64,000 bases of DNA from Candidatus Falkowbacteria bacterium (lineage in GTDB: Bacteria; Patescibacteriota; Patescibacteriia; Patescibacteriales; VMTK01). The DNA lies in assembly GCA_013791585.1 (NCBI GenBank), contig VMTK01000005.1:18484-82483 (forward strand), in the 5' to 3' direction. A program made the translations under genes and the position numbers. Positions 8,086-56,750 of this stretch are shown one piece after another. The stretch's first letter is position 1. Each line of letters starts with the position of its first letter. The notes under the pieces were generated by a model, which was not told where the DNA came from, searched no databases, and saw only the letters and a program-made list of their open reading frames with translations.

Positions 8086-8125
8086 AATAAAATCATAAAC
8101 AGAAACACTAAAACACTTTTGAATT

Positions 8126-9460: not shown

Positions 9461-9608
9461 ATAAAATAAATAAGAACGAGAAGAAAAATAAGGTAAATAA
9501 GAAGCAAGCTGCGTCTTATTTTTATTTTTCTCATTTATCTTTTTATTTCCCGATGTGCGAATCAGGATCCCGAATTCTGCGTTAGCAGAACATCGGGGCT
9601 TATTTTTC

Positions 9609-10614: not shown

Positions 10615-10712
10615 TTTCTTATTTTTATTATTTTATTATTTTATTATTTTTATTATTTTATTATTTTTATTATTTTATTATTTTTATTATTTTATTATTT
10701 TATTTCACAATC
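10615..10712. repeat. (ATTATTTT)n microsatellite, about 12 units
   Basis: Direct tandem repeat ttattttattatttt... in the gap between the pgk stop and the upstream gene. Confidence 0.9.
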
Positions 10713-11992
10713 CCTTTCAGCCCGGGCATTTTTTCTCCGCTTAAAAAGGCCAGCATGGCTCCTCCGCCGGTTGATACCCAGTCAACATAATCAATCATTT
10801 TTGTCTGCCTTAAAGCTTCCACTGTTTCCCCTCCTCCAACTATTCCAAACGCGCGGCCCCGCGAACGGGACGCCACTGCGCGGGCGATTGACAAAGTGCC
10901 ATGCTTGAAATTGTCTTGTTCAAACATTCCCATCGGCCCGTTCCAAACTATAGTATTGGCTTTTTTTATAAAACCGGAATACAATCCTATGGTTTTGGGG
11001 CCGATATCTAAAATCTTCTCGCTCTTTTTTACATCGTACGCGTTTTTAACTTCCGGCTCTTTATTTCCTTTGCCTTTGCCGACCACAACATCTATCGGCA
11101 AAATAATATTTGCGCCGCCGCCGCGATTTTTATTTTTCAATGCTTTCGCGAGCGTAACATTTTTTTCATCCGCTGCCGACTTGCCGATTTCCATGCCGTG
11201 AGCCGCGAAAAAATTATTAGCCAAGGCCCCGCCGATTAAAATATGGCTCGCTTTCCTGCGCAGTTTTTTTATTAATTTTATTTTAGTGTTAATTTTAGCT
11301 CCGCCGATTACCACAATCAGCGGCTTTTTAGGAAACAGGACTTTGCTTAAATTTTCCAGCTCTTCTTGCAGAAGCAGGCCGGCATACGAAGGTAAATATC
11401 TTTTTATCGCGCTTAATGAAGCATGCTTCCTATGGCTTGCGGCAAAAGCGTTATTAACATAAACCCCGCGCCTTTTAGGCAGAATATTTTTAATATTGTT
11501 AGACAGCTGTCCAAAAGGCGCGGGGTGAATATCAGCCAAACGAGATAATCGCTTGGCGAATTTTTTATCATTTTGCTCTTCCTCTTTATGAAATCTAAGA
11601 TTTTCAAGAAGCATTATTTCCCCTTCTTTTAATTTACCTGCTTCTTCCTCTGTCTTTTTCCCTATGCAATCAGGAACAAATTTTATTCTCTTGCCCAAAA
11701 TCTTGCCCAGCCGAACAGCAATCGGCTTAACAGAATGTGTTTTTGTGTTTTTGTGTTTTTGTGTTTTTGTGTTTGCGCGCGGCCGCCCCAAATGCGTTGC
11801 GATAATTATCTTGCATTTATGCCTCAAAAGAAAACGGATAGTCGGCAAGCAAGAAATTATCTTATAATCATCCAATATATCCGACATCCGACATCCGACA
11901 TCCGACATCCGAAATGGAACATTAAAATCAGCCCGTAAAAAAACTCTTTTGCCTTTTATGTTTTTGGCGTTTCTAATTGATTTAATCTTCAT
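10700..11992 (-). CDS. pgk: Phosphoglycerate kinase
   Basis: KGKRVFLRADFNVP, LENLRFHKEEE and C-terminal GGGAMLAFLSGEKMPGLK are pgk motifs. It carries in-frame repeat insertions RMSDVGCRMSDI (CGGATGT heptamers, 11876-11925) and TKTQKHKNTKT (8-mers, 11736-11775). Confidence 0.9.
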   Translation of the reverse strand: MKIKSIRNAKNIKGKRVFLRADFNVPFRMSDVGCRMSDILDDYKIISCLPTIRFLLRHKCKIIIATHLGRPRANTKTQKHKNTKTHSVKPIAVRLGKILGKRIKFVPDCIGKKTEEEAGKLKEGEIMLLENLRFHKEEEQNDKKFAKRLSRLADIHPAPFGQLSNNIKNILPKRRGVYVNNAFAASHRKHASLSAIKRYLPSYAGLLLQEELENLSKVLFPKKPLIVVIGGAKINTKIKLIKKLRRKASHILIGGALANNFFAAHGMEIGKSAADEKNVTLAKALKNKNRGGGANIILPIDVVVGKGKGNKEPEVKNAYDVKKSEKILDIGPKTIGLYSGFIKKANTIVWNGPMGMFEQDNFKHGTLSIARAVASRSRGRAFGIVGGGETVEALRQTKMIDYVDWVSTGGGAMLAFLSGEKMPGLKGIVK

Positions 11993-11998
11993 ATATTT

Positions 11999-12200
11999 AG
12001 GAATTACGCGCTTGAATATAATTTATACGCATTTTACATATACAGCTATCGCTTATATTAATATCTAAATTGTTACATTGCTAAATTGCTAAATTGTTTC
12101 AATGTCAGCAATTTAACAATGTAACAATTTAACAATATTTGCGGGGACTTTTCAAACAGGCAAAATAATGGTTTTAAAAATTTAGTATTCAAACGCGTTA
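11999..12200. mobile_element. MITE-like intergenic element with terminal inverted repeats and internal palindromes
   Basis: The left end ggaattacgcgcttgaatataatttatacgcatttt and the right end tagtattcaaacgcgtta are partial reverse complements. There is an internal palindrome aaattgttacattg...caatgtaacaattt. The same termini recur at 47351-47585. Confidence 0.5.
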
Positions 12201-21321: not shown

Positions 21322-21406
21322 CTCGCCGCAGTCTCTCCGCAGAGGACTGCGGCGGTCATGCTCGCTTGTTCGTCGCAGTCCCTTTCAGGAGACTGCGACG
21401 CGGCGG
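21322..21406 (-). ncRNA. Twin-hairpin GC-rich element (copy A) in the rpsK-rpsD spacer; candidate structured RNA or REP-like element
   Basis: Two consecutive palindromes, cgccgcagtctctccgcagaggactgcggcg and cgtcgcagtccctttcaggagactgcgacg. A second copy at 51164-51270 carries a compensatory change in hairpin 2 (T/A here, C/G there). Confidence 0.45.
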
Positions 21407-21504
21407 AAATTCTAATTTTCAAATTACCAAAATCGTTTTGAAAATTTGAATATTAAGATTTGGGATTTGTTTAGAATTTAGAGTTTAGGATTTAGGATTT
21501 TTTA

Positions 21505-26942: not shown

Positions 26943-28142
26943 TTATGCGGCAATAATCCCCCCTCCCAGCACTTCATCCTCATTATTATAATTCGCATGC
27001 GCGTTATTTGTAGCAGCGCGTCTAATCCCATAAAATACAACGCTTTGGCCCGGCGTTACAGCCCTTTGCGGCTGAGAAAACGCTACAGCCACCGAGTGGC
27101 TCTTAAAGCCACTCGGTGGCTTCGTAACTTTACACTTAACCGGCTTGTGCCTGTATCTGATAACTGCTTGGCAGGACAACGGCAGTCTCGGCTCTTTGCC
27201 TGAAATCCAGTTCACATCGCCGGCAATCAATTCTCTGCTGTACAAAACAGAATCATCCCTATCACTAACCACATATAGCGTATTGGTTTTATAATCGCAT
27301 TTGGCAGCATAAAAAGGCCCGATGCCGCCAATTTCCACTCCCTTTCTTTGCCCGATAGTGTAAAGCGGCAGGCCCTGATGCTCGCCGATAACCTCCCCTA
27401 ACCCCTCCTTGGCAAGGAGGGGAACGCGGAGCGACTCCGCCATTTTTCTCCCCTTACCAAGGGGAGATGCCCGAAGGGCAGAGGGGTAAGGGGTGAGGGC
27501 AACAATCGGCCCTGGTTTTAACTTGATATGCTCGCGCAAAAAATCATTATGATCGCCTTTTAAAAAACAAACATCCTGGCTTTCTTTTTTTACATAAGGC
27601 AATTTTGCTTTGTCCGCGATTTTTCTAACTTCCTCTTTCGTGTACTCGCCCAAAGGAAATAAAACCCGCGCCAGCTGTTTCTGCGTCAAATTATAAAGAA
27701 AATAGCTCTGATCCTTGCCCTCATCTTTCCCGCGATATAACTTATAAATCAATTCTGTTTTTGTGTTTTTGTGTTTTTGTGTTTTTGTGTAGTGTCCCGT
27801 TGCCAAAAAATCCGCGCCGATCTCGCGAGCGCCCTTGAGTAGCGCGCCAAATTTAATAAGCCGATTACACCTTGCGCAAGGATTCGGCGTTAAGCCGCGA
27901 GCATAACTTTCTAAAAAATAATCAATCACTTCTTTTTTAAATTGGTCGGCGTAATTTACCGGATAAAATTTAACGCCTAATTTGGCGCAAACGCGGCGCG
28001 CGGCCTGCTCGTCATCGCTATTATTTGCCAACCGCATAAACATGCCGATAACTTCATATCCTTGTTTCTGCAATAAAAAAACCGCCGCCGAAGAATCAAC
28101 TCCGCCGGACATGGCGATCACAACTTTTAAACATTTAGGCAT
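26943..28142 (-). CDS. mnmA: tRNA-specific 2-thiouridylase MnmA
   Basis: PP-loop SGGVDSS and CARCNRLIKFGALL identify MnmA. Two in-frame insertions: a roughly 110-nt GC-rich palindromic element (27393-27502) and 8-nt repeats (27764-27791; TKTQKHKNTKT). Confidence 0.9.
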   Translation of the reverse strand: MPKCLKVVIAMSGGVDSSAAVFLLQKQGYEVIGMFMRLANNSDDEQAARRVCAKLGVKFYPVNYADQFKKEVIDYFLESYARGLTPNPCARCNRLIKFGALLKGAREIGADFLATGHYTKTQKHKNTKTELIYKLYRGKDEGKDQSYFLYNLTQKQLARVLFPLGEYTKEEVRKIADKAKLPYVKKESQDVCFLKGDHNDFLREHIKLKPGPIVALTPYPSALRASPLGKGRKMAESLRVPLLAKEGLGEVIGEHQGLPLYTIGQRKGVEIGGIGPFYAAKCDYKTNTLYVVSDRDDSVLYSRELIAGDVNWISGKEPRLPLSCQAVIRYRHKPVKCKVTKPPSGFKSHSVAVAFSQPQRAVTPGQSVVFYGIRRAATNNAHANYNNEDEVLGGGIIAA

Positions 28143-28556: not shown

Positions 28557-29888
28557 CTATACGACAAATACTTTCTCCAAAACATATTCCAAGAAATTAG
28601 TCTTTACGTAAGCCAGGCCGATTATAAAAATTATAACCAAAACGCTTTGCAGAATTAACGGCTTGTGCTGAATGCTGAATTTAACGAATATGTTTATCAG
28701 CAAAGAAACAGCCACTATTGCCAAAACAATAAAGAAAATATAATGCGATATTTTTATGGCATTGGCCGCTATGCTTATTTTTTGATCTTGTTCAACGCCA
28801 AAAGATTTAACTTCTACCGCTAATTCATCCCTCATGCCGCTAAAATCAATGTAAGGGCTTGCCGGCTTAGTATTTAAAGAAGAGCTTGGTTTTATTTCGG
28901 CTATTATGCTTTTATCTAAATCTTGAACAGCCGGCTTTTCAATATTTTCTGTTTTTTCTTCAGTCGATTTTACCTCTGTCTGTTTTACCTGCTCAGCTTT
29001 AACTTGCGGGCTTGCCTCTGTTGTTTCCTGCTTGATGGCATTAACCGGCAAAGTCGCTGTTTGCTTTGGAGCCGCTGGCTCATTAACAGCCGGAGCCATT
29101 GCCAATTTCGTACTGCTTGTACTTCCGAAAATCTGCACCAGAACATTGGTTTTCTGGCCTTCAATCTCGCCTGACAGGACTGCCAAGCCGACATCAGTAT
29201 ATCTTTGGTTTAATATATTTTTCTTGTGAGTTTCCGACAGCATCAAGGCGCTATGCGCCGCTTGGGCGGAAGTAAAATTCATAGCCAGATTCTCGCCGGC
29301 GAACAGATAAGCGTATTCGCTTCTGTTTATAAAATTCCATGGCATGCGGCCGTCCGGGCTTTCATGCGCGAAATATCCTTTTTCAACCATGTCTTGGGCT
29401 TTGCTTAAAGCCGATTCGTTTAAAGCAAAATTATTCGCCAGCTCATCTATCCCTTCGCTCTTTCTGTCAATATTGATTAATTCCATAATTTGCTTGGTAA
29501 TCAGCTCGGACATTTTCGCCTGATTCGGATAAATGAAAAATAAATAACCGGCTACTGACATTTTAACCAACAGCATAGCCAAAACAATAATAGCCAAAGA
29601 TTTAGTCCTTAAAATTTTCGGCTTATGCTCATTGTCTTCGCTTGGTATGAAATACTCTTTAAAAATAGATCCGGAATCATGAAAAAACCTTTTAAAACCC
29701 TCTTTCCCGTTCACTAATTCTTCAACCTCTTCTTTCTCCTCATCAAGGAAATCCTTAAAATTAACTTCAATTTTCTTTCTATTTTTTTTATTCAGCTTAA
29801 AAGCAAGCAATCTAGCGATAAATCCCCAGATAATTAAAAATAGAATCCATTTTTTCCCGTTGTTTTTCTTATTTTTTAAAAATTTCAT
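28557..29888 (-). CDS. CAP (SCP/PR-1, YkwD-like) domain membrane protein
   Basis: A central CAP-like region (GYFAHESPDG...AGENLAMNF...HSALMLSETHKKNIL) is flanked by TM segments. Confidence 0.55.
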   Translation of the reverse strand: MKFLKNKKNNGKKWILFLIIWGFIARLLAFKLNKKNRKKIEVNFKDFLDEEKEEVEELVNGKEGFKRFFHDSGSIFKEYFIPSEDNEHKPKILRTKSLAIIVLAMLLVKMSVAGYLFFIYPNQAKMSELITKQIMELINIDRKSEGIDELANNFALNESALSKAQDMVEKGYFAHESPDGRMPWNFINRSEYAYLFAGENLAMNFTSAQAAHSALMLSETHKKNILNQRYTDVGLAVLSGEIEGQKTNVLVQIFGSTSSTKLAMAPAVNEPAAPKQTATLPVNAIKQETTEASPQVKAEQVKQTEVKSTEEKTENIEKPAVQDLDKSIIAEIKPSSSLNTKPASPYIDFSGMRDELAVEVKSFGVEQDQKISIAANAIKISHYIFFIVLAIVAVSLLINIFVKFSIQHKPLILQSVLVIIFIIGLAYVKTNFLEYVLEKVFVV

Positions 29889-30044
29889 GTTTATAATATA
29901 GCAAAAATTAAAAGGATTGTCAAAAGAATTAATTCTTGAATTGTTCTAAATAATTGTGAATTACGGTTTAATACAAAAAAATCTCTTGCTTAATTCCAAG
30001 CAAGAGATTTTTTATGTATAAAATCATTGACGCGGCGCCGCAAA

Positions 30045-32456
30045 CTAAAATCCGGGGAACTGGCTTTTTACTGTTGCTTTGTCGTTTTCATCAGTTAAAA
30101 TATTAAGCAAAGAACTTACGGCTGTTTTCATTTTGTCTTTTTCTCCAAGCTTTTGATAAAGCACCGCCAAGCTGTACAGCGAATTCGCGTGATTGGGTAT
30201 TGCTTGCGTAATGCTTAAAAACGCCTGCTCGGCTAAATTTAAATCTTCGTTGCGGCTGATCGCGCTAGTTGCCGGCTGGCTGGCTTCTACGCTTAATTCA
30301 TCTTCTTCGTTTTCGCCGATTGTGATTTCTTCGGCCGCTGTCTGAGATAAATTCGGCTGGACCACTCCTCTGTTAAAATAAAGCCGGCCAAGCTCAAATC
30401 TGTAATTTATATTATTTCTGTCAATTATAACCGCTTTTTTTAACTGTTCAATTGATTCGTCATTATCGGCTATGCTCTCATAAGCGACTGACTTGCCGTA
30501 ATATGCCGCGGCTAAATCGGATTTTTTCGCGATTGCTTCATCATATTTTTTAATCGCTTCTTGAATGAAATATTCCTTTTCCGCTTGATCAGACTCAAGC
30601 CTTGCCCGAGCCATGCTGACTAAAGCTAAACGAACATAAGGCGTGGGATTATTAGGGTCAAGCTCGGCTGTTTTATTATAATAAGTTTCCGCCCACTCCA
30701 GCGCGCCTCTGATATAAAATGACGAGTTCTCGTAAATCAGCGCCAGCGCCTCATTGCAGCTCGCCTTATTAGGCGCTATTTCAACGGCTTTTTTGCCGTT
30801 TTCAATAGACATGCTTAAATAATTCTGAAAATCTTGATTGTTATTCTGCGCCTGTCGGTTGGCCAATGACATGTAGCTATTGGCTAAATTTATGTAATAA
30901 ATATCCCTGTAAGGCGCGAGCGCGGCGGCTTTTTCCAATTTTGCTATTTTTTCTTCCAAGGTTGGCGCGCGCAGGCTTTCGTTAACATAAGCATCGGCCA
31001 AGTACATCTTGATGCCCAAAGTGAACAAAACAACCACGCCGGCGCTTACGCACAGGAAAATGGCGGCCAATGCCAGCGCGTATTTCGGGGAAGTCCTGAA
31101 AGATAAATTTATTGAATTGAACTTTTCCGGATAAACTATAATGGCGGACGACACGGCAAAAGTGGAAATTAAAACAGCGAATAATATTATACCGCTATTC
31201 AATGAAAAAAGAAGCGAAAGTATAAAAACCGCGGCAAAACCGGCAAAAAGAGACAAGACGATTGAATGCGTTTCTTTGTCGCCAGACTTAATTAAAGCTA
31301 TAAAGCAAAGCGAAATCGCTATTAATGCTATGATCACGAATGATAAAGCGCCCAATACTCCGACATTGGCTAAAAGCTCAAACAAAGATCCGCTGGCGCT
31401 GTCAAATCGCGCGTTCCAAAGAGGAGAATTGTTGAATGCCAAGTCTTTGTATTTCGTAAAACTGTAATAAAAAGTGGAAGGCCCTGACCCAAAAATAGGA
31501 TCCTTTATTATGCTGGCTTTCGCGATATCCCATGAAGCGCCGCGCGACAAGCTTACTTCAGCCGGCAAATCCAAACTTTTAAAATTAAAATTACCCAAGA
31601 CTAAAAGCGTGATTAACAATAAAAAAGCGGCCAGCGGAATAATTAAATTATTCTGAGAAATCTTAATCACTTTTGACAGAAAAAACATTAAGACAATAAC
31701 AATTCCGACTATGGCGGCCGGCAAAAAAGCAAATCCCTTTAACAAAGCCAGCACTGCCAAAGAAATTAAACTGACAATTAATAATAAAATCTTAACAAAA
31801 ATTTTAATAAACTTGCTTTTGAGATTCGGGTGTATTTCATTGATTTGCGCGGCGGCTACGATAAACAGGGGCAAAACGCTTGCTATAAACACGGTAAGCG
31901 CCGACGCTGATCCAAGAGCATTAAAGCTGATCGCTTTGGTAATCGCGAAAGGAAGAATGAAAATGCCCAAAAGCTGCAGCAGCGAATAAACAGCTATCAA
32001 ACTGCTTGAAAAAATCAAAGACCAAAATATCAGCTTGATTCTTTTAATGTTGATATTATTAACCATTAAATAATAAAACAAGGCGAAAATAACAACAGCG
32101 GCCAAACTTTTCGCTGAATTCCCATAAGCTCCTATCAAACTGTCTTTGTAATTGACGGACAGAATAGTTGAAACAGCAACCGAAGCGATCAGCGCTATTA
32201 TCGGCCAATCCAGAGGAGTCCTCTTGAGCTTGAGCTCTCCTTCCGTAATGCCCTTTGTTACCCATGCCACAATTCCGATTAAGACTAAAAAATAAAATAG
32301 CATCATTTTTTCAAAACCCATTCCTTGGGCCGCGAAACCGGTAAAAAACAGCGGGCAAAGGAAAAAAATAAGCGAAATAGCGCTTACAATAATAAAATCC
32401 AATGCCTTAACGCCGGCTTTTGTTTTTGTTAAGGATGATTTCAAGATGGTTGACAT
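30045..32456 (-). CDS. O-antigen ligase/polymerase-like polytopic membrane protein with C-terminal TPR repeats
   Basis: 803 aa. The N-terminal half has more than 10 TM helices and the C-terminal roughly 300 aa are TPR-like (AKLEKAAALAPYRDIYYINLANSYMSLA...). Confidence 0.5.
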   Translation of the reverse strand: MSTILKSSLTKTKAGVKALDFIIVSAISLIFFLCPLFFTGFAAQGMGFEKMMLFYFLVLIGIVAWVTKGITEGELKLKRTPLDWPIIALIASVAVSTILSVNYKDSLIGAYGNSAKSLAAVVIFALFYYLMVNNINIKRIKLIFWSLIFSSSLIAVYSLLQLLGIFILPFAITKAISFNALGSASALTVFIASVLPLFIVAAAQINEIHPNLKSKFIKIFVKILLLIVSLISLAVLALLKGFAFLPAAIVGIVIVLMFFLSKVIKISQNNLIIPLAAFLLLITLLVLGNFNFKSLDLPAEVSLSRGASWDIAKASIIKDPIFGSGPSTFYYSFTKYKDLAFNNSPLWNARFDSASGSLFELLANVGVLGALSFVIIALIAISLCFIALIKSGDKETHSIVLSLFAGFAAVFILSLLFSLNSGIILFAVLISTFAVSSAIIVYPEKFNSINLSFRTSPKYALALAAIFLCVSAGVVVLFTLGIKMYLADAYVNESLRAPTLEEKIAKLEKAAALAPYRDIYYINLANSYMSLANRQAQNNNQDFQNYLSMSIENGKKAVEIAPNKASCNEALALIYENSSFYIRGALEWAETYYNKTAELDPNNPTPYVRLALVSMARARLESDQAEKEYFIQEAIKKYDEAIAKKSDLAAAYYGKSVAYESIADNDESIEQLKKAVIIDRNNINYRFELGRLYFNRGVVQPNLSQTAAEEITIGENEEDELSVEASQPATSAISRNEDLNLAEQAFLSITQAIPNHANSLYSLAVLYQKLGEKDKMKTAVSSLLNILTDENDKATVKSQFPGF

Positions 32457-32569
32457 AGTAAAATAGCGCGAATAATAACGTTAGCTTCTTAAAGCTAAAG
32501 CGCTACATATCCACATAAATAATATTTATAATTTGAGTATATCACAAACATAATTGCCGCGCAATAATA

Positions 32570-32810
32570 TGTCGCAATTACTGAACGAAGCTCGAACCTT
32601 TTTTGAACAAAACTCCGACTGATTGCTCCCGCCGTTGGCGGGACGGCAGAAACTAAACGCTCGGGCGGGCAAAAAGCGAAGTCCCATACCGAACTTGTTC
32701 TGGTGCGGGGGAAGGGGGTTGGGGGGAAGGAATTTTTGCCCGCCCTTGCTTTCCGATTCCAATTTTTCCGCCGCCGCCGCATTTCGTGCCAGTGAAACTG
32801 GCGCGCCGCC
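32570..32810 (+). ncRNA. GC-rich structured repeat element, copy 1 (inverted relative to copies 2 and 3)
   Basis: It is the reverse complement of 35643-35880 and of 46543-46826. Conserved core gggcgggcaaaaa...tttttgcccgccc plus hairpins with compensatory substitutions. The embedded ORFs are taken to be spurious. Confidence 0.5.
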
Positions 32811-32889
32811 TTATTTCAAGTTTACTGATTTTGCTCTTTAGCGGCAAATTCTTTTTAAAACTACATAATATTTCTATAGCTTGCTCGTA

Positions 32890-34338
32890 TTACTGTTTTA
32901 TTAGAGAACCAGAAAATGCTATTCCACCCATAAATTCTTGTCCGGAATATATATGTTCTCCTCCTATAATCATCTTGGAAAAGGTTAATGTATTTCCCGC
33001 AAGTTGAAACTCTAAACTCGTGTTTTCACCAAACAGAATCACCATAGACCCCTCTTTTTTCCAATTCAGTAATCCAATCTTTTCGTCGGGTGAACTTATT
33101 GTCCCATCTTGATTAAATGTAATCATCCAATCATGTGTAAATACTTCCTGACTTCCTCCTGCTGTATTTTGCAAGACACCCGCCCATGTGGTTCCGCCAA
33201 CCGAATTATTATTTTCGGTATGTGATTGCTCCTTTTGTGTTTCCACCTTGATTTTGCTCACTTCCGTTTGCGCGGAGTTTTCTGAAGCATTTGCCGACTC
33301 TGCTGGCTGATTAACCCCTAATATATTCTCAATCTCCTCCACTGTCACTGCGTCATTAGTAACACCTTGTTCTTTCATCCATTCATTTACCTCTTCTTTT
33401 TCCAAAACCGAAACTTCTGTTGCTGGCTCTGGCTTTTCTTTTGTGGGGGTAGGTAATTTAATGCCGATTACCGACCCTGACTGAATTGTAGAATTAAGTT
33501 GTTCGGCTCCAAATGTTACAGCATTCAGTTTATCAATACCTAGGACTAGATTAGTAGGCAAAGTAGCGACCATTAAAATAGCCGCAGCCGGTTCCGTTAT
33601 TTTGCGGACATCTCCCACGATAGAAGATATTTTGTTTTTATCGCCTAGCGCCATTTTAGCAGTATCATCAGTAATTTCCAGCGTTAAATCTGCGCCACTG
33701 ACAATTACAGCGACCTGACCAAAAGTTCCACCACTAGCAATAGCAGCTGTTCCTCCCGTAAGCGCGATTGTTCCTACAAATACGGTCACCTTGCTAGCGT
33801 TTTTAACCACAGTCGCTCGATTCTCACAGGTTTGAAAAACATCTCCTTCTTCTCCGTAAGCCTCTCTGCTTATTTCATCTTGGGATTGATTAAGAACAAG
33901 CTGAGCCATTTTTGCGTCTACTCCCAAAAACTGAGCAAGTGTTCTAATTTTTCTTCCCATTGGAGCTTTATCAACAATATTTGTAATTTCTTCTTTAGTG
34001 TAAGCCTGTACTGTTTCGACAAATTTAAGACTTACTTTTTCCTCTGCCATTTTATTGGCTAAATTTTCTAGAACAATAGCTTCTTTTCCCAATGCTTCCC
34101 AATTTTTAATTATATCTGTCATTTCACTACTCCAAGCGTCATAATCGGCATAGTTCTTGGCATTTATCAACACATTGTCAGTTCGGTATCTCAAGGCGGC
34201 ATATTCCCGAGAGATATTAAGCGTGCTTTCCAAAATTGCCTGCTCTTGTGTCTGAGGCGCTTGGCGATTGTTGAGAAAATAAAAAATTCCGCCGACAAAA
34301 ATGATAATTACTATTGCTACGATGATTATTTTTTTCAT
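32890..34338 (-). CDS. Membrane-anchored extracytoplasmic protein, hypothetical
   Basis: 482 aa with an N-terminal TM anchor and no recognisable motif. Confidence 0.45.
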   Translation of the reverse strand: MKKIIIVAIVIIIFVGGIFYFLNNRQAPQTQEQAILESTLNISREYAALRYRTDNVLINAKNYADYDAWSSEMTDIIKNWEALGKEAIVLENLANKMAEEKVSLKFVETVQAYTKEEITNIVDKAPMGRKIRTLAQFLGVDAKMAQLVLNQSQDEISREAYGEEGDVFQTCENRATVVKNASKVTVFVGTIALTGGTAAIASGGTFGQVAVIVSGADLTLEITDDTAKMALGDKNKISSIVGDVRKITEPAAAILMVATLPTNLVLGIDKLNAVTFGAEQLNSTIQSGSVIGIKLPTPTKEKPEPATEVSVLEKEEVNEWMKEQGVTNDAVTVEEIENILGVNQPAESANASENSAQTEVSKIKVETQKEQSHTENNNSVGGTTWAGVLQNTAGGSQEVFTHDWMITFNQDGTISSPDEKIGLLNWKKEGSMVILFGENTSLEFQLAGNTLTFSKMIIGGEHIYSGQEFMGGIAFSGSLIKQ

Positions 34339-34603
34339 AATGGTTCTTTAATATTTTAAATATTTAATTATCCTCAGTATAGTTCCTTATTGTTAATAGA
34401 TAAATCGTTTTCGCAGCCCCGTTATTCAACGGGATAAACTCCGCGGAGAAAACACCATATATCCCTCTTGTATTTAAAGAAAAAGAAATTTGAAATTTTT
34501 TTAAAACAATTGGGCGATAACCCAAAAGGAAAAGGAATATTTCAGCTAACTCGTTTTTATACGAATTGTTTCCGCTATTTTATTGAAAATTTACTAAATT
34601 TGA

Positions 34604-35335
34604 TTATTCTCCTAAGCCACTAAGCGCAGTCGTCTCAATTTTTTTATTGAGATTAGCAATGTTAAAGCCAAATAATATCACTTCTTGCACATTTAAAGGA
34701 AAAATTGTTTTAATGTCTTTTGGATAAAGCGAGCCGTCTCTTGGCGACTCATGAGACATTTTGTTTATATCGCGATATGACAATTCGTTCGGATAATTTA
34801 TTTTAGCTGGCACGGACTTCCCGCTTAATTCCTTTAATTTGCCATTTTGCATAATAAACTCTCCACAGCGAACCCAAACATACAATGGAAACAAACCATC
34901 TTCCGTCGGATTTAAATTCCCTATAACGCAAAAATTACGGCTATCAGCTGTTGTTTTCCAACTAAAATATTTTTGCGTTAAAAGATAGTCCGTAATAAAT
35001 TTTTCCAATTGATCATCGCCAAAACTTGAGGTTGGTTTTTTACAGCAAATACACGGGCATTTTAAACCAACAATATCACCCAAATAGTCCGCCTTGTTTT
35101 TGCAAAAGTCAGCTTTATGGTTCCAGTAAAACTCTAAGTCTTCTGCTCTTTTATCATCAAGAATGTTTATTATTTCACCACCTTTTTCTTTTGCCAAACA
35201 CTCGTCCGCGGTAATTCTAACTTGCTTAACAACCTCGGGCTGAACCTTTTTGTTATAAAGAAAAAATCCCACACCGGCAAAAACTGCCAATATTATTACT
35301 GATAAAACAATTAAAACATATTTATTCATTTTCAT
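34604..35335 (-). CDS. Membrane-anchored Cys-containing protein, hypothetical
   Basis: 243 aa with an N-terminal TM anchor. Confidence 0.45.
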   Translation of the reverse strand: MKMNKYVLIVLSVIILAVFAGVGFFLYNKKVQPEVVKQVRITADECLAKEKGGEIINILDDKRAEDLEFYWNHKADFCKNKADYLGDIVGLKCPCICCKKPTSSFGDDQLEKFITDYLLTQKYFSWKTTADSRNFCVIGNLNPTEDGLFPLYVWVRCGEFIMQNGKLKELSGKSVPAKINYPNELSYRDINKMSHESPRDGSLYPKDIKTIFPLNVQEVILFGFNIANLNKKIETTALSGLGE

Positions 35336-35345
35336 TTGTGTTTTT

Positions 35346-35552
35346 TTATTTTAATAAATCCTCAATTGAAACGCCAAATGCCTTGGCTATTTTAGACATA
35401 ATCATAACGGACGGTTTTCTAATTACATTACTTTCAATTTTTGTCAGGGTAGTATATTTAACACCGGATTTTTTGGCAAAATCCTCTTGCGACAAACCAA
35501 TCCTTGCCCGTTGTTTTTTTATATTTTCCCCTATATTAATTTCTGTTGCCAT
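35346..35552 (-). CDS. XRE-family helix-turn-helix transcriptional regulator
   Basis: IKKQRARIGLSQEDFAKKSGVKYTTLTKIESN is a classic Cro/C1 HTH. It is paralogous to 46182..46394. Confidence 0.8.
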   Translation of the reverse strand: MATEINIGENIKKQRARIGLSQEDFAKKSGVKYTTLTKIESNVIRKPSVMIMSKIAKAFGVSIEDLLK

Positions 35553-35642
35553 ATTTTCAATTATTTGATAGTATGATAATGATGTGTTATACTTTCAATA
35601 TAATGATACCAAATTTTATAAAAACAATCAAACAAAATTCTT

Positions 35643-36070
35643 GGCGGCGCATTTCGCAAAGCGAAATACGAAATTCGGCGGCGGCGGAAAAATCGGAATC
35701 GGAAAGCAAGGGCGGGCAAAAATTCCTTCCCCCCAACCCCCTTCCCCCGCACCAGAACAAGTTCGGTATGGGACTTCGCTTTTTGCCCGCCCGAGCGTTC
35801 AGTTTCTGCCGTCCCGCCAACGGCGGGAGCAATCAGTCGGAGTTTTGTTCAAAAAAGGTTCAAAATTAAAAAAGCAATTCCGCCCCTAAATTCAAAGGCA
35901 AAGGCGGGCAAAAAAGGAAGGGGTTTTTTTTTGGGGGGGGAGGGAAATTTTTGCCCGCCGTGCCTTCCTCCCGCCGGAGCATGTCCCGCACACCGATGCG
36001 GGAACGGGCTAATCCGCCTCTTTTTTAAGCCAAGATTATTTTTCGTGCCAATATCATTGGCGCGCCGCCT
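35643..36070 (-). ncRNA. GC-rich structured repeat element, copy 2 (composite; contains a second degenerate core)
   Basis: It shares the core with copies 1 and 3 and sits about 100-500 nt upstream of the XRE gene. Confidence 0.5.
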
Positions 36071-36257
36071 TAATTTATTAAAAATTCTTTTGCTTTATCT
36101 AAATTTTGCCGAAAATTACTTCTATTTGTAAAAATTAAGTTTGATGATTTTAAATAAAAAATAAATTTAGAAAAATTTTCAATATTCGTCGAAAACATTT
36201 TTACATATTCCTTAAATAAATCTTTCGCGCCATTTGGAAGTTCTCTCTTAAGTTTAT

Positions 36258-36713
36258 TTAAAAAAAATTATATAATTGTGTATCAATTTTATTCTTTTCT
36301 TTTAATTTCAAATATGTTGTTGCCATAAAAGCATAGTTAAACGGTTCTCCTTCGCAACCTCCATTAAAAATTTTTTTATCTATTTTATTATTAATTATCG
36401 GATTAAAAAAGGCATGATGAGTTTCATGAAATAGACATCCCCACAAATTTTCCGGATATTTTTTTTGAATATTCCTATTGTATATTCCCATTTTAACGAT
36501 ATGGGGATTGCATGTAGAGTCGTATGCTGCTCCACCTGTTGAATTGTTCAATTCTATTTTTATTTGATCATCATTCCATGCTTGACCAAAAACTTCTTCA
36601 ATGGTTGGGAAAACAACCTCGATATCATCAAGGTATTTTTTTAGTTTTTCAACAGCTTCCGTATCTTCAGAAAATTTTTGTAAATTTGTAATTAAATAGT
36701 GTGTAGTTTCCAT
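36258..36713 (-). CDS. Small HExxH-motif protein (possible ImmA/IrrE-like metallopeptidase)
   Basis: 151 aa containing the CLFHETHHAF HExxH motif. Confidence 0.35.
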   Translation of the reverse strand: METTHYLITNLQKFSEDTEAVEKLKKYLDDIEVVFPTIEEVFGQAWNDDQIKIELNNSTGGAAYDSTCNPHIVKMGIYNRNIQKKYPENLWGCLFHETHHAFFNPIINNKIDKKIFNGGCEGEPFNYAFMATTYLKLKEKNKIDTQLYNFF

Positions 36714-36925
36714 TAAAATAAAATGTTAAATTATTTTTTCCAATCTTTTATAATTATACTCTTTCCTTTCATTTTAACAACGACTTTTTGTTTTTCTCTC
36801 CATTTCAATTTATTAATCATTTCAATCGGGATCGTCACGGCATAACTATCCCCGCTCTTCAAAATTTTCCTTATATTTTCGTCTTCATTTTTTCTTCTCA
36901 TAAAATACTGATTTTAATCATTATT

Positions 36926-38155
36926 TTAATAAAACCATGTTATATCTGGATTCTTAATTTCTTCAACGTTGCTTTGCTTCAGCTTGTATAATCCATCCTC
37001 TAAAATTGTTTTCCAGGTACCTTGATAATAATAGTATTCCACTTCACCGAGAAGCCAATTCTTTGTGCCAAATTTTATATACACAGTATCTTTGGATTTG
37101 TTATAGGGTTCAACTGAGATAACGTCTACATCTATTATATCATTGAAGCGGTTGGTCCACTCTTCAAGGGTAGTATATTTTTTATATGTACTACTTAATA
37201 AATTAAATCCATTGCTCATGCTTCTGGCTTTTAAATAAGTATAAAAGGCTTTGACTCCTTCTACGGGCGAAAGACTGGGATTAACCTCTATTTTAGCTAT
37301 GGACTGGTCGGTGAAAAGATCTATAAGATGGTTTGCAATATCTGCGGCAATGAAAAGCGATTGGCCGGACATGCTCATTGTATTAATACCTACTACGTTT
37401 CCACAAATATCAGTCAATGGTCCTCCGCTCATACCTTCGACTAAACCAAAATCGGTCTGGAGATAACCCACTGATTCTTTTTTTGATTTACGATAATCCA
37501 AATAGTTACCTTTTATAACAGTAGGATCGCCGGTTAAATCTGTTCCGAGCGGATAGCCTGCTGCTATTAATTGTTCTTCGGGCTTGAAACTAAGAGAATT
37601 AGGTAGAGAAAAAACAAAATCAAAGTAATTTTTATCAGTATATAAGATCGCCAGGTCGGCTTTTTGATCGCCGGTTATTTTTATAGGCGTGATAAAGGTG
37701 CCATCAGGAAAAATAATTTTTGGGCTTGGCTCGCCATCAATAACATGAAAGTTAGTAAGTATCTGATCAGGCGCAATAAAAAAACCACTGCCCTCGGAAT
37801 ATCCGCCAACAATTCGTACAACAGATTTTTTCAGTTTTTCCTGCGCGTCAAACTTGCAATATAATTTTTGGTACCAACTATGGTGCGTCATCAAATAGTC
37901 ATTCATGACCAAACCGGTAACCGCCAGATAAGCCAATAAAATAATCGCGAGTAAAAATTTGAAGAAACTTTTAAAGCTACGGAAAGGATATGAAAATATA
38001 TAAGTCAAGGCGGCCTTAAAAGCAGTATCAACGGACTTATAGATGGCGGATATTGATTTTAATAATTTTATATCAGAATAATAATATAATTTTTCTGAGT
38101 TTTTATCTTTTTCTTTTTCGTCCTTAAATTTTTTTATGGTATAGATTAACTTCAT
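36926..38155 (-). CDS. Membrane-anchored trypsin-like serine protease (S1 family) with a C-terminal domain of unknown function
   Basis: VVRIVGGYSEGSGFFIAPDQILTNFHV (His), ADLAILY (Asp) and GMSGGPLTDICGNVVGI (Ser) form the catalytic triad context. Confidence 0.7.
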   Translation of the reverse strand: MKLIYTIKKFKDEKEKDKNSEKLYYYSDIKLLKSISAIYKSVDTAFKAALTYIFSYPFRSFKSFFKFLLAIILLAYLAVTGLVMNDYLMTHHSWYQKLYCKFDAQEKLKKSVVRIVGGYSEGSGFFIAPDQILTNFHVIDGEPSPKIIFPDGTFITPIKITGDQKADLAILYTDKNYFDFVFSLPNSLSFKPEEQLIAAGYPLGTDLTGDPTVIKGNYLDYRKSKKESVGYLQTDFGLVEGMSGGPLTDICGNVVGINTMSMSGQSLFIAADIANHLIDLFTDQSIAKIEVNPSLSPVEGVKAFYTYLKARSMSNGFNLLSSTYKKYTTLEEWTNRFNDIIDVDVISVEPYNKSKDTVYIKFGTKNWLLGEVEYYYYQGTWKTILEDGLYKLKQSNVEEIKNPDITWFY

Positions 38156-38179
38156 TGCCGGATAATTATTTGATTAGTT

Positions 38180-38623
38180 TTATTTAATCTCTTCGGCATT
38201 TTTAATAAAACTTCTAATTGCCGGATTTCTTCTTTTATTAGCTTCGGCGAGTTGACAAAGCGTTTTATAATTCATTTTCCACCCCTCTAAAAATTTATAT
38301 TTTTTATTTAATAAAACTAAAATAGCAAAATCGAATTCGTGTTTAGAAAAAATTCCCACCCTACCCTTTATTTTATCTCCAATAATACGTCTAGTTTTTA
38401 TCTGATATTTGTTCTCTTTTCTATCTACGGCATCATAGCCAGCATTTATTTGATCTGCAATTAAAAAAAGATTTAATTTATGACAAATTAATATTTCCCC
38501 AACTTCGGCGGTAATTCCCGATTTTCTTTCTGTTAAATTTTCATATTCCAAAGACGCAGAAATAACTTTTTCAATTGCGCTTAAAACAGAGGGGGTAATT
38601 TTAATAAAAGTATTTTTTTTCAT
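38180..38623 (-). CDS. Hypothetical protein
   Basis: 147 aa, 4 nt upstream of the protease gene. Confidence 0.4.
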   Translation of the reverse strand: MKKNTFIKITPSVLSAIEKVISASLEYENLTERKSGITAEVGEILICHKLNLFLIADQINAGYDAVDRKENKYQIKTRRIIGDKIKGRVGIFSKHEFDFAILVLLNKKYKFLEGWKMNYKTLCQLAEANKRRNPAIRSFIKNAEEIK

Positions 38624-38627
38624 AAAA

Positions 38628-38831
38628 TTACTTTCTATTTTTATATCTCATTCGAAAATTTTCTTTTCTTTCTATTGTATGAACTAAGCAATTTTCATCT
38701 TTACAGTTTACCAATAAACATTTAGCGCAATTTTCATCATTGCATTTGCAGTTTACGCCAAATTCTTTTTTAAACCCTTTAATCATTTTTATTTTTGTCA
38801 AATTATTGTTCATTGTATTAACATTAATCAA
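38628..38831 (-). CDS. Small Cys-rich protein (CxC/CxxC clusters)
   Basis: CKCNDENCAKCLLVNCKDENC is a possible Zn-binding cluster. Confidence 0.35.
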   Translation of the reverse strand: MINVNTMNNNLTKIKMIKGFKKEFGVNCKCNDENCAKCLLVNCKDENCLVHTIERKENFRMRYKNRK

Positions 38832-38859
38832 TTTTGATAAACGAGCGTTTAAAATAAAA

Positions 38860-48721: not shown

Positions 48722-48761
48722 AAAAATTCACTTTAATTAATAGTTATAAAGTTATATTGTT

Positions 48762-48805
48762 ATGCGTTATGCGTTATGCGTTATGAGTTATGCGTTACGC
48801 GAAAA
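48762..48805. repeat. TTATGCG heptamer array
   Basis: gttatgcgttatgcgttatgcgttatgagttatgcgttacgcg lies between the ppiB-like gene and cca. Confidence 0.9.
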
Positions 48806-50380
48806 TCACTTCACCCAAAATTCTTTCTTCAGTTCGCTGTCATCTTCCATTTTTCTGTCTTCAATTTTTTCTTTGGCTTGGCCGCGCAATTCTTTTAATT
48901 CCATTTTATTCAATTCTTGGCTTCTGTTTTCTAAATATTCTTTATTATTCAGATCAGGATCATCAACCACTTCGGACAGCAAAACATCCAAAATAGCGCC
49001 GATTTTAGGACTTGGCTGGATTTTTAATAATTTCATTAATTCGTCTCCGTTTATTTTCAGCATTTTTACGGACAGCGGATCCTGGCGCACTTTTTCCATC
49101 ATATATTCCAGATGGCGGAGCTTATACGGCTTGGCTTTCGGCACGCCGGAACCGAGCCGGTCCGCTATCCGCAGATCAATCAAGTCTTTCAAGTTTTCTT
49201 CTCCTACTTTTTTAATCAAGCGCCGCACCGAGCTGGCTGTCACTTCATCAACATTATAATAAAACATGTGGTTGCGTATCAAGGCCGCGACTTTTTCAAT
49301 CTCATCATTGGAAAACTTCATCCGGCTCATAATCTTCTTGGCGATTTTCGCGCCTACTATGTCATGATTATAAAAAGTGGCGCCGCCGTTGATAATTTTT
49401 TTTGTCTGCGGCTTGGCAATATCATGAAGCAGCGCGGCAAGCTTGACGCGCCAATCATTGCTTGGACAGAATTTCAATGACAATACGCAATGCCTGAAAA
49501 CAGAATGAATATGATGCTTGCATTGCCCCACCCCCACTCCTCTTTCCAGCTCCGGCATAATATACTGAAGCAATTTATTTTGATGCAAAAACATTATGCC
49601 TTCGTAAGCTTTATTAGACTTTAATATTTTAATCAACTCATCTTTTATTCTTTCATTGGCAATGAATTTTATGCCGCCGGCCATTTTCTTTATCGCCCGC
49701 TCGGTTTTCGGCTCAATGTCAAAATTCAACTCGCAAGCCAGGCGAATCGCCCGCATCATGCGCAAAGCGTCTTCCTTAAACCTGTCGGACGGCTCCCCTA
49801 CCGCCCTGATAATCCTTTTTTTAATATCTTTCTGCCCGCCGAATAAATCAATAATTTGAAAATTATCATTTTTAACTCCCTTCTCCCGTGAAGCGATAGC
49901 GGGAGAGGGGCTGGGGGTGAGGGCAACAGCCATTGCGTTTATCGTAAAATCGCGCCTGGACAAATCCTTCTCCAAACTATCCTCAAATCTAACCTCATCC
50001 GGGTGCCTCCTGTCAGAATATCCCTGTTCACTGCGATAAGTCGTCACCTCAACAACTGTCTTGTTTTCGTCCTCCTTCGCTAATGCTTCGGCGGATAAAT
50101 GTTTTCGTGTTTTCGTGTTTTCGCGTTTTCGCGTTTTCGTGTTTTCGCGTTCTACGGGAATTATCACAGTCCCAAAAACATTCTCATACTTTCCATCAGG
50201 AAAAATCTTTAAAATTTCTTCCGGCTTGGCATTAGTGGTAATGTCCCAATCTTTAGGTATAATGGAGCGCAATAAATCACGCACGCATCCGCCAACCGCA
50301 TACGCTTCATGGCCTGCTTGCTCCAGTTTGTCTATTATATTTTTTATATATTCTGGTATTTTCATATTAAAACTATACAA
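48806..50380 (-). CDS. cca: CCA-adding enzyme / tRNA nucleotidyltransferase with HD domain
   Basis: N-terminal AGHEAYAVGGCVRDLLRSIIPKDWDITT (polymerase-beta NTase) and an HD domain (LHDIAKP...). In-frame 8-nt repeat (50099-50157, ENTKTRKRENTKTRKH) and palindromic element (49874-49925). Confidence 0.85.
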   Translation of the reverse strand: MYSFNMKIPEYIKNIIDKLEQAGHEAYAVGGCVRDLLRSIIPKDWDITTNAKPEEILKIFPDGKYENVFGTVIIPVERENTKTRKRENTKTRKHLSAEALAKEDENKTVVEVTTYRSEQGYSDRRHPDEVRFEDSLEKDLSRRDFTINAMAVALTPSPSPAIASREKGVKNDNFQIIDLFGGQKDIKKRIIRAVGEPSDRFKEDALRMMRAIRLACELNFDIEPKTERAIKKMAGGIKFIANERIKDELIKILKSNKAYEGIMFLHQNKLLQYIMPELERGVGVGQCKHHIHSVFRHCVLSLKFCPSNDWRVKLAALLHDIAKPQTKKIINGGATFYNHDIVGAKIAKKIMSRMKFSNDEIEKVAALIRNHMFYYNVDEVTASSVRRLIKKVGEENLKDLIDLRIADRLGSGVPKAKPYKLRHLEYMMEKVRQDPLSVKMLKINGDELMKLLKIQPSPKIGAILDVLLSEVVDDPDLNNKEYLENRSQELNKMELKELRGQAKEKIEDRKMEDDSELKKEFWVK

Positions 50381-51163: not shown

Positions 51164-51270
51164 TTCCGCTTCGCCGCAGTCTTCCCGCAGTATTGCGGGA
51201 GACTGCGGCGGTTCGCCTGCTTGTCCGCCGCAGTCCCTTTCAGGAGACTGCGGCGCAGCGGGAAAGCGGA
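51164..51270 (-). ncRNA. Twin-hairpin GC-rich element (copy B)
   Basis: cgccgcagtcttcccgcagtattgcgggagactgcggcg ... ccgccgcagtccctttcaggagactgcggcg. Outer pairing ttccgctt / aagcggaa. Compare copy A at 21322-21406. Confidence 0.45.
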
Positions 51271-55497: not shown

Positions 55498-55660
55498 TTT
55501 TCGCGTTTTCGTGTTTTCGTGTTTTCGTGTTTTTGTGTTTTCGTGTTTTGAGGCGAAGCCGAGTGTTTTCGTGTTTTGAGGCGAAGCCGAGTGTTTTTGT
55601 GTTTTGAGGCGAAGCCGAGTGTTTTCGTGTTTTGAGGCGAAGCCGAGTGTTTTTGTGTTT
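55498..55660. repeat. Tandem repeat block: about five 8-nt units followed by four 28-bp units (gaggcgaagccgagtgttttYgtgtttt)
   Basis: Direct repeats with no spacers lie between ftsL and rsmH. Confidence 0.9.
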
Positions 55661-56624: not shown

Positions 56625-56629
56625 AACTC

Positions 56630-56750
56630 GTTACGAGTTATGCGTTATGCGTTATGCGTTATGCGTTATGCGTTATGCGTTATGCGTTATGCGTTATGCG
56701 TTATGCGTTATGCGTTATGCGTTATGCGTTATGCGTTACGAGTTATGCAC
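56630..56750. repeat. Long TTATGCG heptamer array (about 15 units)
   Basis: gttatgcgttatgcg... lies immediately upstream of rsmH. Confidence 0.95.

Follow-up and report, generated by a model that had tools for sequence, protein, structure and literature searches.

Is a small operon enclosed by two inverted copies of a GC-rich element a mobile unit, an invertible switch or a static arrangement? Bacteria of the Candidate Phyla Radiation (CPR) have tiny genomes and are mostly uncultured, and gene exchange among them is poorly known. We addressed the question at a locus in a 64-kb stretch (hereafter the window; all coordinates are positions in it) of contig VMTK01000005.1 from a Candidatus Falkowbacteria bacterium. 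A preliminary description had reported an inverted pair of a structured element (copy 1, 32570-32810; copy 2, 35643-36070) around a three-gene cassette, and had likened the arrangement to a composite mobile unit or an invertible or excisable cassette. We identified a dispersed repeat family, a recurrent cassette layout, rearranged isomers of the locus in a natural population and the positions of the crossovers that separate them. On balance, the rearrangements are probably best explained by the cell's general homologous recombination between inverted, near-identical copies of the repeat.

An inverted repeat pair encloses a regulator-led operon

A repeat finder returned the pair as its top match, with inverted arms of 215 nt (32573-32787 and 35668-35882) that are 94% complementary and spaced 2880 nt apart. 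BLAST gave 98.45% identity across the central 194 nt. The similarity of the arms is far above chance expectation, and the pair described earlier is real. Its second copy has to be divided: the interval 35643-36070 holds the true partner of the left arm, E2, and also a second element, E4. The search for additional copies, which the preliminary description had proposed, yielded a fourth copy in the window, E3, and copies in many CPR genomes. The repeat is thus dispersed in the window, with four copies (E1-E4) rather than a pair. The motif TTTTTGCCCGCC occurs 11 times in the window at ≤1 mismatch, compared with 1.7 expected, and its eight exact occurrences all lie within the four copies. These are as follows.

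32566..32861, plus strand: E1, the left arm, a downstream-type copy of the modular GC-rich repeat
35643..35894, minus strand: E2, the right arm, an upstream-type copy with the inner hairpin ATTTCGCTTTGCGAAAT and an A-box whose outer half is degenerate
35895..36095, plus strand: E4, a short downstream-type copy at the end of the neighbouring unit U2, back to back with E2; an A-box is lacking, the stem-loop at 35903-35959 has a shortened loop and the inner hairpin is GCCAATATCATTGGC
46480..46828, minus strand: E3, an upstream-type copy with a 3' extension (...GTTGCGCTTGACCCGCCCACCCGTTCGCGCGCAAC...GGAACTCCC), adjoining a 32-bp palindrome and tRNA-Pro

The arms E1 and E2 enclose three genes, all on the minus strand, at the coordinates given earlier. 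The first encodes a helix-turn-helix (HTH) regulator, whose identity is confirmed by PF01381, and the two others encode proteins with a single hydrophobic N-terminal helix each, for which "membrane-anchored" was a fair term. Together with the region upstream of the regulator they form unit U1.

35553..35642, minus strand: portable promoter/operator region, found in conserved form ahead of every HTH gene of the family
35346..35552, minus strand: HTH68, first gene of U1, a 68-aa XRE-family HTH regulator, controller-like (PF01381, E=5e-17)
34604..35335, minus strand: cargo gene 1, a 243-aa protein with one N-terminal membrane helix and no Pfam or NCBIfam family
32890..34338, minus strand: cargo gene 2, a 482-aa protein with one N-terminal membrane helix and no Pfam or NCBIfam family

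The promoter/operator region contains promoter-like sites at 35631->35603 and 35598->35570 and an operator-like repeat, TTTGGTATCAT...ATACTATCAAA. In profile comparisons HTH68 matches SinR and the 434 repressor best, while the restriction-modification (R-M) controllers C.BclI and C.Esp1396I follow at about 3e-7. The HTH68 family thus appears controller-like by its context and, as judged from its sequence, a generic XRE protein. The arrangement of R-M controllers, with a small HTH gene first and co-directional with the R-M genes, fits U2 and most related cassettes, not U1.

The 482-aa protein, which NCBI labels as from "Patescibacteria group bacterium", has more than 150 CPR homologues, and the distant ones are located outside any cassette. 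We considered its gene as a core component of the cassette and rejected this: the distant homologues stand in ordinary contexts, with no HTH gene, element or inverted repeat, which makes the gene cargo.

Rearranged isomers occur in an essentially clonal population

We retrieved contigs of the same population by exact-protein look-ups, from several samples and assemblers; the evidence on inversion therefore consists of assembled contigs, not reads. U1 is part of a 14-kb accessory island that runs from E1 (32566) to tRNA-Pro (46973) and comprises two units, U1 and U2. The reference order is found in GCA_018900415.1, GCA_018900375.1, GCA_022013195.1, GCA_018896415.1, JGI 3300015049, ERZ27247111 and SRR7079911. 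At the level of contigs, the reference orientation is seen in the window, L001, L002, L004, L005 and L008, and alternative orientations in L006 and L003/L059. The cassette that the preliminary description called invertible is thus present in opposite orientations within one population, with exactly reciprocal recombinant arms.

In isomer A (L006, sample SRR7079870), the left flank (28861-32787) runs across the repeat into U1, which it enters at the HTH end (35861 down to 32841). The reciprocal junction, in which the end with the 482-aa gene is joined to the right flank, is present in L003 (ERZ27247124, assembled by MEGAHIT at k=141). Arm-specific markers in L006 and L003 (the arms differ by A/G at 32655, by A/G at 32762 and in the inner hairpin) locate an exact reciprocal exchange within the 107-nt identical centre of the arms. 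A second rearrangement lies on the same contig (L059): position 46827 is joined to 32570 and downward, so that the whole island from E1 to E3 is flipped, by an exchange between E1 and E3 inside the 56-nt, 100% identical A-box. Third, L003 connects the HTH end of U1 with a fifth copy, E5; here the exchange took place where the inner ends of E5 and E2 are identical over 55 nt.

E5 is part of another cassette locus, a paralogous one (L161/L162), which has the order HTH78-240-142-LNT-506aa-168-313. The contig L162 comes from the same sample as L003. The two have exactly 140 nt (k-1) of E5-specific sequence in common, beyond which they part, so both continuations of E5 were present in that read set. 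As a separate observation, the cassette at L161:4150-11529 of this population encodes, besides HTH78 and the 240-aa protein, an apolipoprotein N-acyltransferase (LNT) and a 506-aa paralogue of the 482-aa protein (77% identical), and this gene content suggests a surface or lipoprotein theme of the cargo.

The unique DNA of the isomer contigs has no mismatch to the window in U1, U2 and the left flank; the isomers arise in an essentially clonal population. An apparent strain divergence confined to the cassette in L003 proved to be a BLAST artefact from the E5 arm; U1 has no mismatch in 2,731 nt. A search through the 151-aa gene of U2 gave no more junction-spanning contigs; the contigs retrieved only break inside the repeat.

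One may ask whether the repeats are static and the inverted contigs mis-assemblies over collapsed repeats, the orientation being fixed. Most short contigs, from at least seven samples, do break inside elements, there is one contig per non-reference isomer, and L006 was built by Logan at a small k, below the 107-nt identical tract. L003/L059, in turn, was assembled at k=141, and its arm-specific markers are at most 109 nt apart, so that single k-mers must span the markers. Moreover, the junctions from two assemblers and samples are exactly reciprocal, and the parting of L162 and L003 after their 140-nt overlap shows both continuations in the read set. We consider mis-assembly unlikely.

The three crossovers differ in position: one lies in the 107-nt centre of the repeat, one in the 56-nt A-box and one in the 55-nt inner end. 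In every case the interval is a long tract of perfect identity between the two copies involved. Homologous recombination would be expected to give this pattern, an enzyme with one core site would not, and for this reason we favour homologous recombination. A dedicated inversion switch, which an invertible cassette might imply, is at odds both with crossovers at three repeat positions and with the fact that the promoter flips with the operon. Because the promoter/operator and the regulator lie within the arms and travel with the operon, the inversion is not an on/off or phase switch; it is probably a by-product of the repeat architecture.

The cassette frame recurs across CPR lineages with different cargo

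To define the family, we searched species-representative genomes with the pattern GGCGGGCAAAAA-N30-60-TTTTTGCCCGCC. It gave 49 loci, nearly all in CPR and many at contig ends. The element is present in Saccharibacteria, Moran-, Portnoy-, Taylor-, Berkel-, Kuenen-, Ames-, Curtiss-, Nealson-, Falkow- and Wildermuthbacteria, Microgenomates and others. Since element sequences are 85-95% identical between CPR lineages whose core genes are far more diverged, the family appears to have spread horizontally between them. Neither the insert-specific nor the general stem pattern was found in 2.9 million viral contigs, so we see no sign of a phage vehicle. Our literature searches, which included CPR repeats, miniature inverted-repeat transposable elements (MITEs) and serine-recombinase cassettes, turned up neither this repeat family nor this cassette frame in CPR.

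About 130 related loci have a common frame: element, conserved promoter/operator, XRE regulator of ~68 aa, variable cargo, for the most part R-M genes, and inverted element. With an element profile (nhmmer), convergent inverted pairs were found in other CPR genomes (L021, L041, L049 and L057), and each encloses an operon that begins with a close HTH68 homologue and continues with unrelated cargo. The ~90 nt before the HTH start codon are conserved in all inspected loci and match 35553-35642 of the window. The operator-like repeat, a candidate operator, varies in step with the HTH subfamily and reads TTTGGTAGTAT...ATACTACCAAA in the subfamily of L021 and L041. Upstream of the conserved promoter/operator lie several types of GC-rich modular repeat. 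The element profile (type 1) misses the other repeat types, and we therefore used a profile-free inverted-repeat test for bracketing. HTH relatives number more than 547 in metagenomes, and 38 HTH loci had enough sequence to be tested; an inverted repeat of 61-413 nt brackets the HTH cassette in 14 of them, with inner lengths of 1.2-6.5 kb. Several contigs begin and finish inside the two arms of HTH cassettes.

The cargo genes are all co-directional with the HTH gene. DNA methylases account for 16 of 58 cargo proteins, and there are at least eight endonucleases. TdeIII, ThaI, NgoPII, MjaI and CfrBI endonucleases, Vsr and helicases are found, as is non-defence cargo (Nudix, PAP2 and two-component proteins). 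Tandem cassette arrays are present in the window, L049, L071 and L073. Three loci (L080, L083 and L105) are 88% identical over recombinase, element, promoter and HTH gene; the homology ends precisely with the HTH stop codon, past which the cargo is unrelated.

A different kind of replacement was seen in L126 (3087-4677) and L127 (10956-12491). These cassettes are 99.8% identical in flanks, 413-nt arms, HTH gene and most cargo, and differ by a non-homologous internal segment of 1.5 kb. We considered this pair as an exchange at the arms and rejected it, as the swap lies inside the cargo.

The recurrence of an inverted-pair cassette design with different cargo in many unrelated CPR genomes gives some merit to the cassette as a unit, as in the preliminary description; its mobility in the manner of a transposon is not supported, as there is no target-site duplication, cognate transposase or empty site. 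U1 might in principle be a transposon-like mobile insertion cassette, whose arms are terminal inverted repeats and which hops as a whole by a transposase supplied in trans. Long terminal inverted repeats around cargo with no transposase are indeed the form of mobile insertion cassettes and MITE-flanked units, near-identical elements in distant CPR lineages imply horizontal spread, and R-M units flanked by long inverted repeats have been described as transposon-like (PMC2853133). Neither U1 nor the island has a target-site duplication at its ends: no direct repeat was found outside E1/E2 or E1/E3. Nor did the about 130 loci (of up to 20 kb) contain a transposase with matching ends. Empty sites were looked for in the same loci, whose contigs are short, and none was found. 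The arms also differ systematically at their inner ends. Transposition of the whole unit is, in our judgement, very improbable.

The element is built of palindromic modules

When the copies are aligned in one orientation, fixed sequence blocks alternate with variable hairpins. First comes the A-box (GTCGCAATTACTGAACGAAGCTCGAACCTTTTTTGAACAAAACTCCGACTGATTGC), and second a variable hairpin, TCCCGCC-GTT-GGCGGGA in E1 and E2 and GCCGCGC-TTC-GCGCGGC in E3. The third module is a 13-bp stem, GGGCGGGCAAAAA/TTTTTGCCCGCCC, around the G-rich tract GGAAGGGGGTTGGGGGGAAGG and a variable insert; the fourth is a C-rich linker that terminates in GAATTTCGT. A further variable hairpin follows, then GCGCCGCC and last an optional 3' extension. 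In E1 these modules lie at the following positions.

32571-32626: A-box
32627-32643: hairpin
32663-32745: long stem-loop (GGGCGGGCAAAAA...TTTTTGCCCGCCC) that encloses the G-rich tract 32707-32730 and is followed by the C-rich linker
32788-32802 and 32803-32810: inner end, composed of TTTCGT, the hairpin GCCAGTGAAACTGGC (32788-32802) and GCGCCGCC (32803-32810)

The 56-nt A-box of E3 is 100% identical to that of E1, in inverted orientation. The last hairpin falls into two position-specific classes, one like ATTTCGC-TTT-GCGAAAT before the HTH promoter (E2 and E3), the other like GCCAGT-GAA-ACTGGC at the 3' end of the cargo (E1 and E4). The inner ends of the pair differ accordingly, with GCCAGTGAAACTGGC beside the cargo 3' end in E1 and ATTTCGCTTTGCGAAAT beside the HTH promoter in E2. 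Because of these two classes, E1 and E2 are not interchangeable ends.

The preliminary description left it between structured RNAs and DNA hairpins at the ends of the cassette. The elements could be structured non-coding RNA genes, or leader and terminator RNAs acting in cis at both sides of the operon, with recombination incidental. Conserved hairpins with compensatory changes would suit such RNAs, as would the position of the upstream-type copy, which lies just upstream of the HTH promoter and is co-oriented with it; E3 follows a tRNA, so that co-transcription is possible. Folding lends less to this idea: copy 3 is marginally more stable than shuffled sequence (z=-2.1), and copy 1 is no more stable (z=-0.02 and -0.37 on the two strands). 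Rfam, searched with the whole window at the gathering threshold and with copy 3 at E≤10, has no family matching the element; the only matches were tRNAs and spurious microRNA-hairpin matches.

RNAalifold recovers the long stem, which is almost invariant and thus uninformative on covariation, and the 3' hairpin, whose pairs are kept through two-sided changes in 13-17 of 31 sequences. A census of the 3' hairpin counted ~18 Watson-Crick variants and, among single mismatches, three G.T and four A.C, with no strand bias. Hairpin loops are present in both complements (TTT/AAA, GAA/TTC), the large stem-loop carries a G-rich or a C-rich loop depending on the element type, and the downstream copy of each pair, if transcribed, is the reverse complement of the upstream copy. 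The absence of a strand bias of G.U over A.C, of an Rfam match and of unusual folding energy makes the RNA interpretation improbable. Instead, since the hairpins covary with no strand bias, loops occur in both complements, no Rfam family matches and the fold is unremarkable, the sequences favour palindromic modules selected at the DNA level, as hairpins or cruciforms on either strand, rather than a strand-specific RNA, although they may be transcribed. DNA palindromes are thus the half of the earlier statement that fits better.

As an aside, the G-rich tract GGAAGGGGGTTGGGGGGAAGG within 32663-32745 has G-quadruplex potential, and its C-rich complement lies inside a similar stem at L080:~4300-4400. 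The G-rich and C-rich loops of the element types look as if the loop had been flipped between the arms of the stem.

Related loci contain tRNA genes and a large serine recombinase

A co-oriented tRNA gene ends 113-395 nt upstream of the HTH gene in 11 of the 38 HTH loci (eight Ser, two Pro and one Ala). U2 fits this pattern, with tRNA-Pro 506 nt upstream of its first gene, HTH70. Five loci have a left flank in common, and in it lies the gene of a large serine recombinase (Resolvase, Recombinase and Zn_ribbon_recom domains). Its homologues are present in 16 of the about 130 loci, where 0-200 nt separate the 5' end of the gene from an element's outer end, and tRNA-Ser is often directly next to the 3' end. 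Relative to the recombinase, cassettes are found in both orientations (L016 and L128 versus L107, L127 and L080).

We also noted that at L080:2636-4400, and likewise in L083, L115, L127 and L073, the recombinase open reading frame (ORF) runs antisense into tRNA-Ser at its 3' end. It is apparently flanked by inverted copies of a short GC-rich module, and the same module directly follows tRNA-Ser in the recombinase-less loci L086, L087, L099 and L141. Given this layout, the recombinase gene may itself be part of a unit that can invert or be excised.

No transposase, integrase or recombinase domain was detected in 47 scanned ORFs of the window or in the annotation of 22-44 kb, which bears out the earlier report that transposase and integrase are absent, and phmmer gave no match to the CPR large serine recombinase in the window.

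Homologous recombination compared with a site-specific system

We then propose a model for the rearrangements. General homologous recombination would exchange strands between E1 and E2, and also with other copies (E3, or E5 at the second locus), and would thereby flip the 2.9-kb cassette, flip the whole 14-kb island or join distant loci; the exchange would presumably depend on RecA. Inverted flanks may persist because direct flanks would delete the cargo. The conserved flanks, with element and HTH gene upstream and element downstream, could act as portable homology for cargo exchange between genomes. The back-to-back joint of E4 and E2 would be the expected product of a Campbell-type integration of a circular unit into a resident element.

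Several points weigh against this model. A bracketing repeat was found in only 37% of the evaluable HTH loci. RecA is not among the genes of the window (recA lies outside it). There is a single contig for every non-reference isomer, and repeats are places where an assembler may go astray; such an error is made less likely, short of being excluded, by the contig built at k=141 and by the reciprocal junctions, which come from independent assemblies. Finally, the serine recombinase abuts the outer end of the element in 16 related loci, with cassettes in both orientations, which makes a trans-acting enzyme plausible.

Such an enzyme would be central to a site-specific system, in which a large serine recombinase, its gene lying elsewhere in the genome, would act at sites inside the repeat to invert, integrate or shuffle cassettes on a shufflon- or integron-like platform at tRNA genes. 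The recombinase beside cassettes, with its ends near element and tRNA-Ser, the two orientations of cassettes relative to it, the tandem arrays and the co-oriented tRNA just upstream of the HTH gene all speak for this possibility. The window, by comparison, has no recombinase and no att-type duplication of the tRNA-Pro 3' end (no second copy at ≤3 mismatches in the window). The crossovers lie at three positions instead of one core, and the arms, at 200-400 nt, are far longer than the sites that serine recombinases need. A site-specific system therefore seems to us possible, though doubtful, and homologous recombination remains our preferred reading.

It is tempting to speculate further on a previously undescribed platform of CPR: operon arrays beside tRNA genes, in which every operon stands between long inverted palindromic modules and starts with the portable promoter/operator and a small XRE controller, and which are served by a large serine recombinase that would capture, invert and exchange defence and surface-protein cargo between phylum-level lineages. 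This would be an analogue of the integron made from different parts, and the window would be a recombinase-less array acted on in trans. We put this forward tentatively, as a minority possibility.

The island and the surrounding chromosome

In the direction of its genes, the island reads tRNA-Pro, palindrome, [E3> HTH70 ... 151aa <E4] [E2> HTH68-243-482 <E1], followed by the TPR-803 gene. Its further features are listed here.

36258..46394, minus strand: U2, the second HTH-led operon
46182-46394: HTH70, first gene of U2, 44% identical to HTH68 (paralogues)
After HTH70, within U2: DUF5655, EcoRV-like endonuclease, D12 methylase, DruA, NurA, DUF87/HerA-like ATPase, trypsin-like protease, MazE(-like) and a 151-aa protein
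46829..46902, no strand assigned: 32-bp perfect palindrome (CCAAGTTAAACTTTTTTCAAATTCAGAGGCGA ... TCGCCTCTGAATTTGAAAAAAGTTTAACTTGG) between tRNA-Pro and the A-box of E3
46900..46973, minus strand: tRNA-Pro(CGG), co-oriented with E3 and U2 and directly upstream of them; the same adjacency of tRNA and element is seen in L034 and L043

U2 has the appearance of a compact defence island under one XRE regulator, and includes two unknowns. The palindrome beside E3 may serve as a tRNA terminator or represent another module of the repeat family; a sequence resembling it precedes the A-box in L056.

The window otherwise is an ordinary Patescibacteria (CPR) chromosome, with genes for MurJ, acetate kinase, two iPGM, enolase, PGK, ribosomal proteins, RpoA, AlaRS, MnmA, the CCA-adding enzyme, a Mur ligase, PBP2, RsmH and MraZ. 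The tandem iPGM paralogues (4843-6441 and 6457-8181) contain stretches of 77-79% DNA identity.

The genome is AT-rich and has several distinct palindromic repeat families. One of them (core TTTCCCGATGTGCGAATCGGGATCCCGAATTCTGCATTAGCAGAACATCGGG) forms an inverted pair 37.8 kb apart with 88% identity (9526-9620 / 47402-47496) and is also found at 11994-12035 / 47346-47387; the pair could support larger inversions across the whole island. Two more families of GC-rich intergenic hairpin repeats lie at 8882-8949 / 49859-49926 (82%) and 21364-21409 / 51219-51264 (89%). Many short tandem arrays with periods of 7-8 nt (CGTTATG x17, TTTTCGTG, TGTTTTTG and TTTTATTA) and a 28-nt x4.5 array complete the picture; they lie mostly at gene boundaries, and the array positions are 56629-56748, 55535-55660, 55498-55549, 50100-50151, 48759-48801, 27756-27790, 11736-11774 and 10623-10704.

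Significance and comparison with known systems

The locus exposes a repeat family and a standard cassette frame that hundreds of R-M and other accessory operons over CPR lineages share, and it provides contig-level evidence that the repeats drive inversions and inter-locus rearrangements in a clonal natural population. The repeats also explain many contig breaks and possible mis-joins in CPR genome bins. Should cargo be exchanged through the flanks, or should these be substrates of the serine recombinase, the movement of defence genes between very distant CPR lineages would be explained; parts for CPR genetics (a portable promoter and regulator, recombination sites and a recombinase) would also be gained.

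U1 resembles R-M inverted-repeat units. It also resembles mobile insertion cassettes, mosaic palindromic repeats, invertible segments, shufflons and, in function, integrons, yet departs from these in defining traits. R-M genes bracketed by long inverted repeats with no internal transposase, some linked to tRNA genes and integrases, have been reported, and inversions and allelic substitution have been found in association with such units (Furuta, Abe & Kobayashi 2010, PMC2853133). The CPR units likewise hold R-M or defence genes between long inverted repeats with no transposase inside. Unlike those units, their flanks are one modular palindromic repeat family common across phyla, the promoter/operator and small XRE regulator at the start of every unit are the same portable pair, U1 carries cargo other than R-M genes and short target duplications were not seen.

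Mobile insertion cassettes and MITE-flanked units, such as MIC231 of Bacillus cereus and integron mobilisation units, also have passenger genes between inverted repeats and no transposase in cis. Their ends derive from insertion sequences, their cognate transposase is known and they make target duplications; the CPR unit shares the passenger genes between inverted repeats, whereas these three traits were not found in it.

The repetitive extragenic palindromic sequences and bacterial interspersed mosaic elements (REP/BIME) of enterobacteria and the BOX elements of pneumococci are multi-copy, intergenic and GC-rich relative to the genome, with palindromic modules in variable order and orientation; they break assemblies and are recombination substrates. 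The CPR repeat is similarly multi-copy, intergenic, modular and palindromic, with compensatory variation and with modules that are shuffled and flipped. In contrast, its elements are much longer (200-350 nt), are conserved over phylum-level lineages and sit systematically at both cassette ends, where the inner hairpin differs between upstream and downstream copies; no Y1 transposase was seen beside them.

Invertible segments may be served by an adjacent serine invertase, as in Gin/Cin/Pin and PinQ (PMC12529663). With these and with shufflons the CPR locus shares alternative orientations in one population, several inverted sites with multiple isomers and, in related loci, a serine recombinase gene beside the segment. 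It differs in that this recombinase is large (integrase-type) and absent from the window, the repeats span hundreds of bases, crossovers occur at varying points and the genes stay coupled to their promoter on inversion.

Like an integrase-borne island, the CPR island abuts a tRNA gene, tRNA-Pro, but the window has no integrase and no duplicate of the tRNA 3' end. Compared with integrons, there is no IntI tyrosine recombinase and no single co-oriented attC per cassette, and each CPR cassette has its own promoter and regulator. What the CPR loci do share with integron arrays and their 5'- and 3'-conserved segments is exchangeable cassettes, with a conserved block (recombinase, element, promoter and HTH gene) in front of variable cargo and a sharp end of homology between the two.

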